A stretch of 26,793 nucleotides of DNA from Ilumatobacteraceae bacterium (lineage in GTDB: Bacteria > Actinomycetota > Acidimicrobiia > Acidimicrobiales > Ilumatobacteraceae), in assembly GCA_044358465.1 (NCBI GenBank), contig JBIKNT010000001.1, positions 1 through 26,793 on the forward strand. Reading direction: 5' to 3'. Positions 722-3,438 of the stretch are shown here, piece after piece. The first letter of the stretch is position 1. Every line of letters begins with the position of its first letter. The translations under genes were made by a program, and so were the position numbers. The notes under the pieces were generated by a model. That model worked only from the letters and a program-made list of their open reading frames with translations. It was not told the DNA's origin and searched no databases.

Positions 722-1357
722 ATGGCACTTCGACTCGGCGATACCGCCCCCGACTTCACCGCAGAAACCACACAAGGCACCATCAACTTTCATGAATGGC
801 TTGGCACCTCGTGGGGCGTACTTTTTAGTCACCCCAAAGACTTCACCCCAGTGTGCACCACTGAACTTGGGTACGTAGCAAAAATCAAACCAGAGTTCGA
901 CAAGCGCAATGTGAAAGTCATCGGCTTATCTGTTGACAATGTTGAATCGCACCTGAAGTGGGAAGGCGACATTGGCGAGACACAAGGAACACCTGTGAAC
1001 TTCCCCATGATCGGCGACCCAGAGCGCAAGGTCAGCGACCTGTACGACATGATTCACCCCAATGCAAGTGACACCATGACCGTGCGTTCAGTATTTGTTA
1101 TTGGACCCGACAAAAAGGTGAAGCTCACCATTACTTACCCAGCATCAACTGGCCGCAACTTCGACGAAGTGCTTCGCGTCATCGATTCATTGCAATTGAC
1201 TGCGCAATTCAAAGTGGCCACACCTGCCAACTGGAAAGATGGCGGCGACGTCATCATCGGTGCAGCTGTGTCTGACGATGAGGCAAAGACGCTGTTCCCA
1301 CAAGGCTGGACAACCGTCAAGCCTTACTTGCGCGTATTGCCACAACCTAAGAAATAA
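722..1357 (+). CDS. 1-Cys peroxiredoxin (Prx6 / LsfA-like)
   Basis: FSHPKDFTPVCTTE peroxidatic motif, YPASTGRNFDEVLR and ATPANW. AAGGAG Shine-Dalgarno upstream. Confidence 0.93.
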   Translation: MALRLGDTAPDFTAETTQGTINFHEWLGTSWGVLFSHPKDFTPVCTTELGYVAKIKPEFDKRNVKVIGLSVDNVESHLKWEGDIGETQGTPVNFPMIGDPERKVSDLYDMIHPNASDTMTVRSVFVIGPDKKVKLTITYPASTGRNFDEVLRVIDSLQLTAQFKVATPANWKDGGDVIIGAAVSDDEAKTLFPQGWTTVKPYLRVLPQPKK

Positions 1358-1368
1358 TTTTTACCGAC

Positions 1369-1878
1369 TCACCCCAGCAAGTTTTTCTCTACCCATTCGC
1401 GCACTTGTGGAGCAAGAAAGTGGAGAAACTGCTGGGGTGTTTCGCGTATTTGGGTGGCACTAATAGGAACATTGATGCGCTCTTCGTCGACCACTACTGC
1501 TTGTGCTTCTAGTCGACGTGCTAGCTCAGCAACATAAGAATCAGAAGAGAACACTGCATGCGGGCCGGCGTCATGCGGCCACTTGCTACGAAAAAGTGCA
1601 ATCCATTTCGCCCACAGTTCATTGTCGTTCCAGTTGGTGTCGAGTTCGTGAGCAACTTCCACCACGGTCACGTTGGCATGTAATTCAGCAAGCCAACCTG
1701 CGCGCAAGGAACCAGGCACTAGTTCCCCTGCACGAGTGTTGACGAAAACCACCAGTGCATCACACTGTGCTGCAGCGGCATCAATAAACCACGAATGCCC
1801 TAAATGTGGAGGGTGGAAACGACCCACAATAAGCCCAGTGGAGAATTGTTCGCGGGGTTGGTCGGTCCGATACGTCAT
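1369..1878 (-). CDS. NadR-like nicotinamide-nucleotide adenylyltransferase / cytidylyltransferase-fold protein (stand-alone NTase domain)
   Basis: GRFHPPHLGH (HIGH-type) motif, VFSSDSY and ISATQIRE. Start reassigned to ATG 1878, which has a GGAG upstream; the longer ORF from 2082 overlaps the nitroreductase. Confidence 0.8.
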   Translation of the reverse strand: MTYRTDQPREQFSTGLIVGRFHPPHLGHSWFIDAAAAQCDALVVFVNTRAGELVPGSLRAGWLAELHANVTVVEVAHELDTNWNDNELWAKWIALFRSKWPHDAGPHAVFSSDSYVAELARRLEAQAVVVDEERINVPISATQIRETPQQFLHFLAPQVREWVEKNLLG

Positions 1879-1908
1879 AGGTGTGCTCCACTTGAAACGA
1901 TAGAGCAC

Positions 1909-2502
1909 ATGGACGTCTTCGATGCAATGAACACCGCTCGTGCAATGCGCTTTTTTAAGCCCGACCCCGTGCCGAGTGAACTCATAGAAAAGGTGTTGTG
2001 GGCCGCCACCCGCGCCAGTAGCCCAAATAACACACAAGGCTGGGATTTCATTGTGGTCACCGACCCCGAAGTTCGCAAGCAACTCGGCGCACTCTTTTTG
2101 CCTTTTGCCGAACGTGTTTCCAAATTTCCCGACCCCGGCAACGACACCGACCGACGCACATTAAAAGGCGCGCAAAACCTCGGCGCCAACATGGGAAATT
2201 TCCCATGCATCATTTTTGTTTGTGGTCGCAACATTTACCCTGCCGACAACCCACGTGAACCGTTCATGTATTCAGCGGTGTACGCCGCAAGCCAAAACCT
2301 CATTGTTGCTGCGCGCGCACTGGGTTTGGGCGCAGCCTTCACCACTTTGCACGGAATGGTGGAAGCACAAATTCGTACCATCTTGAATATTCCCGATGAA
2401 ATGTACATCGGCACCACTATTCCCCTTGGCTATCCCGATGGTCCAGAAGGCCCCGTGTCGCGCAAAGATATTTCTGAGGTTGTGCACTACAACGGTTGGT
2501 AA
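1909..2502 (+). CDS. Nitroreductase family protein
   Basis: MDVFDAMNTARAMRFF...AATRASSPNNTQGWDFIVV and AASQNLIVAARALGLGA motifs. Start reassigned to ATG 1909. Confidence 0.9.
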   Translation: MDVFDAMNTARAMRFFKPDPVPSELIEKVLWAATRASSPNNTQGWDFIVVTDPEVRKQLGALFLPFAERVSKFPDPGNDTDRRTLKGAQNLGANMGNFPCIIFVCGRNIYPADNPREPFMYSAVYAASQNLIVAARALGLGAAFTTLHGMVEAQIRTILNIPDEMYIGTTIPLGYPDGPEGPVSRKDISEVVHYNGW

Positions 2503-2506
2503 ACCT

Positions 2507-3022
2507 TTAAGCGCCTGGCGCACTCAACACGGTGCGTTCCATTTCTTCTGGCTCACAGCCCGTCACAATGAGCAACTTGCTAAATCCGTGAAAGAGAGCC
2601 AGTCCAATTCCCATTTCGACAATTTGTTCTGTCGTGAACTCTTTTTTCATTTCTACTTGCACATCGGGCGCCGGTGCACCTTGCGCACCGAGGAATGCGT
2701 CGGCAAAAGCTAGAGCTAGTTTTGAGCGCTGTGGCAAGTCGGTGTCGTCGTAGCCATCGTCAACTTTTTCCACATCGTCTTCCACCATGTTTTCTTGCTT
2801 CACGACCGTGAAGCGCACATTGCGTCAATAACCACAATCGGTAATGCGGGCATTACGTAAGCGCGTGGTTTCTTTGGTGATGTGGTCAAGTTCGCCACGT
2901 TGCCAAAATTCGGCGTACAGAGTAGAGAATGCTTTGGCGAGTTGCGGTTGATGTCCGAGAATAGAACCAAACACTGAACGCGCAGTGGGGTCGACGGGGT
3001 CAAGGCGTGGAGTACTCGACAT
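2507..3022 (-). CDS. AhpD/carboxymuconolactone-decarboxylase-like protein with in-frame TGA (probable selenocysteine, CxxU motif), 171 aa
   Basis: ORFs 2825..3022 and 2507..2818 share a frame and are separated by one TGA (2825-2827), reading KETTRLRNARITDCGY-U-RNVRF. This is the AhpD-like CxxC position, and a SECIS-like hairpin follows. Confidence 0.8.
2797..2814 (-). other. Putative bacterial SECIS element (GCUUCAC-GGUC-GUGAAGC)
   Basis: 7-bp perfect stem with GGUC apical loop. The stem begins 11 nt after the UGA. The loop is the same as in the E. coli fdhF SECIS (GCA-GGUC-UGC). Confidence 0.72.
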
Positions 3023-3438
3023 CAGGCGACCTTTTCCAATTTTCCAAAGCCATCACACAGAGCAACATGGAACAACATCGCCAAAATATCGGGAGTAGAA
3101 AAATACTTTCTCAGCTTCTCAAATTGCTCGTCGGTGACGCTGTGTACGTCGAGTACGAACTGTTCAGTGATTTCTAAAATTGCTTTTTCGCCATCGGTAA
3201 ATTCTGGCGACGAGTACCAGTTCTTTAACTTCTCACTCAGTGCGCTCTCAGCGCGTTCTAAGCCGAGCAACTGAGCAACTTGCAGTTCAATGAGGCTCGC
3301 TGTGCGACCTGGTGCCGTGCTACTCGCTTGGCCTCGTAATTCGTCGATGAAGGGTGCCAAATGGGTTTGGGCGCTGGCAATATCGGACGCATTCCACGCA
3401 CCGCTGACCCATGAGTTGCGACCTTCAATATTTGCCAC
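3022..3438 (-). CDS. AhpD/CMD-like paralog lacking the CxxC motif
   Basis: W..SPEFTDGEKAILEITEQF..D...VTDEQFEKLRKYFS C-terminal CMD-like signature. Its stop overlaps the next start (TGATG). Leaderless TAGGCT-6nt-GTG start. Confidence 0.7.
   Translation of the reverse strand: MANIEGRNSWVSGAWNASDIASAQTHLAPFIDELRGQASSTAPGRTASLIELQVAQLLGLERAESALSEKLKNWYSSPEFTDGEKAILEITEQFVLDVHSVTDEQFEKLRKYFSTPDILAMLFHVALCDGFGKLEKVA

Follow-up and report, generated by a model that had tools for sequence, protein, structure and literature searches.

The window, which is the whole 26,793-nt stretch of an Ilumatobacteraceae genome that was analyzed, carries on its minus strand a gene of the AhpD/CMD type with one in-frame UGA codon and a hairpin directly after it. 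The genes and the UGA codon discussed here are as follows.

2507..3022, minus strand: AhpD/CMD-like selenoprotein gene of 171 codons, obtained by reading two same-frame ORFs through TGA
2825..2827, minus strand: in-frame UGA, codon 66, predicted as Sec within the motif C-G-Y-U from Cys alignment and TGA conservation
722-1357, plus strand: 1-Cys peroxiredoxin gene, an adjoining redox gene
1804-2502, plus strand: nitroreductase-family gene, an adjoining redox gene
1369-2082, minus strand: neighboring cytidylyltransferase-like gene

Standard gene calling splits the AhpD-like gene into two ORFs, 2825..3022 and 2507..2818, which lie in the same frame with the TGA as their sole separator, and reading through the TGA yields a product of 171 aa that contains a CGYU motif. 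The two halves are each scored as coding, in one shared frame. Full-length database homologs carry CG[YF]C-RNVRF at the CGYU position, so the UGA is aligned to the second redox Cys and the predicted Sec stands in the last place of the CxxC redox motif. A search of 60 related genomes found 22 full-length orthologs with 40 to 99% identity, all of which have a single TGA at this same position, and TGA at the codon-66 position also occurs in further loci of the genome collection, including those of Chloroflexota and of two proteobacterial-type MAGs. Most of the other matching database proteins (P0003-P0077) are C-terminal fragments of 94 to 115 aa, mostly 98 to 103 aa, labeled "hypothetical protein," which indicates a systematic truncation of the gene at its Sec codon TGA. 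The names attached to the database matches point to an origin among freshwater Acidimicrobiia, in Ilumatobacteraceae-like Actinomycetota.

The family profile matches solved CMD/AhpD-core structures with an E value of 1.5e-12, indicating CMD/AhpD-core homology, and the Cys homologs bear precomputed PF02627 assignments. Against Pfam CMD, the sequence alone reaches 20 bits, under the cut-off of 23 bits, and none of the curated NCBIfam AhpD-related models is above its cut-off, the best being TIGR01926 (22.2 versus 81.8 bits), with NF041238 at 17.3 bits against a cut-off of 175 and NF053654 at 18.4 bits against a cut-off of 310. On these profile scores, the CGYU-RNVRF proteins are assigned to the AhpD/CMD superfamily, outside the subfamilies modeled by TIGR01926, NF041238, and NF053654.

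The gene upstream on the minus strand (3022-3438) ends in a TGATG that overlaps the start of the selenoprotein gene. It has no Pfam match, and hhalign aligns the C-terminal halves of its product and of the AhpD-like family (probability, 87.6%; E value, 3.5e-6). The upstream gene may be a paralog that is devoid of the redox motif and whose translation is coupled to that of the selenoprotein gene. On the other side of the locus, the gene calls at 1369-2082 and 1804-2502 overlap and thus are not both full-length genes.

Structure and RNA-level conservation of the hairpin

The hairpin lies on the minus strand, within the coding sequence of the AhpD-like gene, and consists of the following parts.

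2815..2824, minus strand: 10-nt spacer CGCAAUGUGC from the UGA to the stem, of constant length in 30 aligned sequences
2808..2814, minus strand: 5' arm GCUUCAC, within the Arg-Phe-Thr codons
2804..2807, minus strand: apical loop GGUC, with an invariant central GU and covarying outer bases
2797..2803, minus strand: 3' arm GUGAAGC, with 100% of the cells pairing in 30 sequences

The perfect 7-bp stem that the earlier note had described, beginning 11 nt after the UGA with its loop at +18..+21, can be read directly from the minus strand at 2814..2797, and RNAfold, one of the programs that the note had proposed as a check, predicts it in the MFE structure as well as in the centroid. The predicted energy is -17 kcal/mol for stretches of 60 to 66 nt, with a z score of about -2.3, and 3 to 5 of 200 dinucleotide shuffles are as stable; the hairpin by itself has -9.0 kcal/mol and a 48-nt stretch has -14.3 kcal/mol. 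Among random sites of the genome, 1.2% have a hairpin of -9 kcal/mol or lower starting at +8..+22, and a start at +10..+12 with a 4-nt NGUN loop is found at a fraction of 7.5e-5 of the sites. A chance hairpin at one prespecified UGA is unlikely, and folding by itself is not decisive. Rfam gave no SECIS match, either for the whole window at gathering thresholds or for 2650..2950 at E values up to 10. The possible lower stem of the earlier note, AUGU (2820..2817) with ACAU (2790..2787), is present as pairs in the sequence, yet it was rejected as a conserved element, with 68% of the cells pairing and one pair broken in 23 of 30 sequences.

Selection on synonymous sites was assessed in a codon alignment of 17 gap-free orthologs of the same genus with 65 to 99% amino acid identity, in which the mean pairwise synonymous difference is 0.46. 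Just 10 of the 162 informative codons show no synonymous variation, and 6 of these 10 are consecutive and coincide with the hairpin codons 70 to 75 (CGC UUC ACG GUC GUG A/GAG), a frozen run that did not occur once in 100,000 permutations. In the same alignment, synonymous sites are free to vary in the spacer codons 68 and 69. Codons 65 and 67, which flank the UGA, are also frozen among the 17 orthologs; on the minus strand, these are UAU at 2828-2830 and CGC at 2822-2824, and their conservation in the alignment is a hint that the immediate context of the UGA is under selection.

Covariation among TGA orthologs, which the earlier note had named as a check of the structure, was found in an alignment of 30 distinct sequences comprising the TGA and 42 nt. 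One stem pair is A-U in 14 sequences and G-C in 16 and is never broken, and two other stem pairs change from U-A to U-G. Loop positions 1 and 4 are G..C in 26 sequences and A..U in 4, with no mismatch, and the central GU is invariant. Both outer loop bases fall on the third position of a codon (GCG GUC versus GCA GUU), so their covariation is purely at the RNA level. Part of the sequence conservation is at the protein level, because most of the 5' arm falls in the codons of Arg-Phe, two residues that do not vary in either the Sec or the Cys forms.

Sec and Cys forms of the gene and selenoprotein genes of the genome

The Sec and Cys forms were compared in a pool of the related genomes and 80 loci of the genome collection. 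The earlier note had expected the hairpin to be kept in TGA orthologs and lost in Cys orthologs, and this pattern is what the pool shows. A hairpin of at least 6 bp and at most -7 kcal/mol starting at +10..+19 is present in 41 of 43 distinct TGA sequences versus 1 of 35 distinct TGC/TGT sequences, and by tree rows 52 of 54 TGA orthologs have the hairpin or its displaced counterpart, versus 1 of 35 Cys orthologs; these raw counts describe the association, since independent Sec/Cys switches (about four changes on the best tree, one of them forced by well-supported branches) are too few to give a paired sign test any power. The two TGA orthologs in which the detector used here found no clean hairpin are L031 and L070.

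The form of the hairpin varies across lineages. The Chloroflexota TGA form has an 8-bp stem with a CGUGGC loop, and the TGA form in one MAG labeled Deltaproteobacteria (Myxococcota) has GGUUCGC-CGGGGC-GCGAACC. Six TGA orthologs (L030, L071, L072, L078, L087, and L091), from some Acidimicrobiales and one Pseudomonadales MAG, have no hairpin at +11 and carry a different hairpin of 6 to 7 bp at +18/+19 with a CGUGA or CGUGC loop. These displaced hairpins suggest that the SECIS was replaced within one gene family while the TGA was retained. The sole Cys-form ortholog with a strong hairpin, in an Acidimicrobiales MAG (L055:1696-1740), has an 8-bp stem with a 7-nt loop, beginning at +13 after the TGC, which may have been left over from a SECIS that was lost or may have arisen by chance.

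The assembly of 1.74 Mb, which is 83% complete, contains selA, selB, selC, and selD. Contig C26 carries selA and selB side by side, and selD lies on C35; these three genes score above the curated cut-offs, and a tRNA-Sec with the anticodon tca is encoded on C97. The SelB protein bears the C-terminal winged helix PF09107 (SelB-wing_3), the part of SelB that binds the SECIS.

The earlier note had offered the hairpin as a template for finding the other selenoproteins of the lineage. The exact template (TGA, N10-12, a stem of at least 6 bp, and an RGUY loop in an ORF-compatible frame) gave three matches in the genome, two of which (C211 and C18) are real, and the match on C278 was rejected as not gene-like. 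The template thus served for the two AhpD-like genes and missed the UGSC and WAxxUGC genes, which needed a looser scan based on an in-frame TGA, a hairpin, and a coding score on both sides. The looser scan recovered three selenoprotein genes besides the AhpD-like CGYU gene, each with a hairpin after the UGA; it was limited to perfect stems with 25 or more codons on either side of the TGA, and selenoproteins whose Sec is near a terminus could thus be missed in this 83%-complete assembly. Most of the in-frame TGAs with good flanking coding sequence were rejected as adjacent genes in the same frame. The three additional genes are as follows.

C18:2453-2983 (L121): second AhpD/CMD-like gene, motif DCKTU, with the hairpin GUUUGGC-AGUU-GCCAAAC from +11
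C109:4269-4790 (L122): UGSC-family gene, NF041046 at 150 bits, above the cut-off, with a 7-bp stem at +12 and an AGUGU loop
C201:8529-9443 (L123): ResA-like WAxxUGC gene, NF041054 at 371 bits, with a short stem and a CGGGU loop

Orthologs of the C18 gene show a compensatory change from U-A to C-G and a GGUC variant of the loop, so that the loop variants of this paralog family match the two of the CGYU family. Taken together, the C18 and CGYU hairpins indicate that a 7-bp stem at +11 with an RGUY loop recurs on unrelated stem sequences.

Comparison with known SECIS elements and proposed mechanism

The consensus model for bacterial SECIS elements (bSECISearch, Zhang and Gladyshev 2005), as summarized in PMC13188914, describes an apical loop of 3 to 9 nt on an upper stem of 4 to 16 bp, a distance of 16 to 37 nt from the UGA to the loop, a G at loop position 1 or 2 that is usually followed by G or U, and an energy of at most -7.5 kcal/mol (PMC13188914). 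The stem-loop here lies directly 3' of the in-frame UGA, inside the coding sequence, and has a 4-nt loop on a 7-bp stem. Its loop is GGUC, with the GU invariant in 30 distinct sequences, the UGA-to-loop distance is 17 nt (the 10-nt spacer plus the 7-nt arm), and its energy of -9.0 kcal/mol is below the limit of -7.5. The two remaining properties of the model, the presence of selA, selB, selC, and selD and the alignment of the UGA with Cys in homologs, are likewise found. There is no essential difference between the model and this hairpin, which stands at the short-spacing, minimal end.

The E. coli fdhF SECIS consists of the UGA, 11 nt, and GGUUGCA-GGUC-UGCACC (100% match inside fdhF; 5,413 E. 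coli records). The earlier note had pointed to the same GGUC loop and a near-identical spacing, and both are confirmed by these records, with the identical loop, a C after the UGA in both elements, and a spacer of 10 nt here versus 11 nt in fdhF. In E. coli fdhF, the upper stem-loop has 17 nt and is separated from the UGA by 11 nt; its critical bases are U17, G23, and U24, of which G23 and U24 are known as determinants for SelB (PMC8659212). Counted from the U of the UGA, the GU occupies positions 22-23 here and 23-24 in E. coli. The two elements differ in that the essential bulged U (U17) of fdhF is absent here, where the 7-bp stem is perfect in 30 of 30 aligned sequences, and in that a conserved lower helix next to the UGA is absent. 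The host genes are unrelated, being AhpD-like here and a formate dehydrogenase in E. coli.

In the Sargasso Sea and GOS surveys, the AhpD-like CxxU proteins and the UGSC proteins rank with the selenoprotein families of highest abundance, and a bacterial SECIS was predicted for each of the two (PMC1088965, PMC2398784). The gene in the window resembles the AhpD-like CxxU selenoproteins of these surveys in its CMD/AhpD-core fold, in Sec taking the place of the second Cys of CxxC, in having Cys homologs and a predicted SECIS, and in the co-occurrence of UGSC-type selenoproteins. An AhpD-type selenoprotein gene with a SECIS is of a kind known since 2005. The CGYU-RNVRF subfamily differs from the survey proteins in falling under every curated NCBIfam (seleno)protein cut-off and in being represented in databases mostly by fragments.

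The hairpin is very probably a bacterial SECIS, which is predicted to direct Sec insertion at UGA codon 66. As the earlier note had proposed, it appears to provide structural support for Sec insertion, judging from the frozen synonymous sites, the compensatory changes, and the complete Sec machinery. In the proposed mechanism, a ribosome at UGA codon 66 would have the 7-bp stem, 10 nt downstream, still outside the mRNA channel, and the stem would extend to 8 bp if the outer loop bases pair. The exposed G-U dinucleotide would then be bound by the C-terminal winged-helix domain of SelB carrying Sec-tRNA(Sec) and GTP, and this complex would be tethered at the A site, so that the UGA would be decoded as selenocysteine and its reading by RF2 avoided. 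The product would have a CGYU active site replacing CG[YF]C, with a presumed redox function.

Three other explanations of the hairpin were weighed. The one that survives best, which is nevertheless very unlikely, holds that the hairpin works mainly by another route, such as ribosome slowing or RF2 occlusion, or has a second regulatory role, such as in selenium-dependent mRNA stability, so that specific recognition of the GU by SelB would not be the main mechanism; the bulged U of E. coli is indeed absent from the stem, and stable hairpins near stop codons can promote readthrough in general. However, the invariant GU, the covarying closing pair, and the fixed spacing are characteristic of sequence-specific recognition, as opposed to stability alone, and the SelB of this genome keeps its SECIS-binding winged helix. 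Furthermore, G followed by U appears in the predicted loops of the four selenoprotein genes of the genome on unrelated stems, with the exception of the WAxxUGC gene, in which GGGU has the GU at the loop end only. That the hairpin is a by-product of the conserved peptide R-F-T-V-V-K with no RNA function, any recoding of the UGA being achieved via something else, has a very low probability. The RNVRF residues are invariant in Sec and Cys forms, and the protein fixes part of the 5' arm, but the Cys forms have RNVRF without the 3' arm, the third positions in the hairpin are frozen whereas those of equally conserved residues elsewhere vary (mean, 0.46), the amino acids of the 3' arm change (T/A, V/A, and K/E/R) with the pairing always kept, and in the loop two third positions covary synonymously; the data on synonymous sites and covariation have already largely refuted this explanation. 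Least probable of all, and hardly tenable, is a true stop in two genes or a pseudogene, with the hairpin as an intergenic stability or attenuation element, which accords with public gene calls that split the gene into mostly C-terminal fragments but not with one TGA kept at the exact Cys-aligned position in 22 related genomes (99% to 40% identity) and in orthologs of Chloroflexota and two proteobacterial-type MAGs, two halves that are coding in one frame, full-length Cys homologs, and complete Sec machinery in the genome.

Beyond the reading of the hairpin as a SECIS, we offer tentatively, as a possibility that is less probable than its opposite, that the SelB of this Acidimicrobiia group recognizes a minimal SECIS without a bulge, consisting of an 8-bp helix with a flipped-out GU, 17 to 18 nt from the UGA. 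Its 5' arm comes mostly from the codons of Arg-Phe, which is invariant even in Cys forms; if the proposal is true, the element could arise through a few changes in three downstream codons, which would account for the repeated Sec/Cys switching and the displaced +18 hairpins in the CGYU family, and such an element would be a very compact, portable tag for Sec insertion.

The hairpin leaves the existing knowledge of selenocysteine decoding unchanged, and it adds a well-supported SECIS with an unusually clean signal of frozen synonymous sites and covariation. The annotation of the family is corrected, in that most of the matching database entries are shortened pieces of an AhpD-like selenoprotein gene, and a freshwater actinobacterial genus is found to carry at least four selenoprotein genes.
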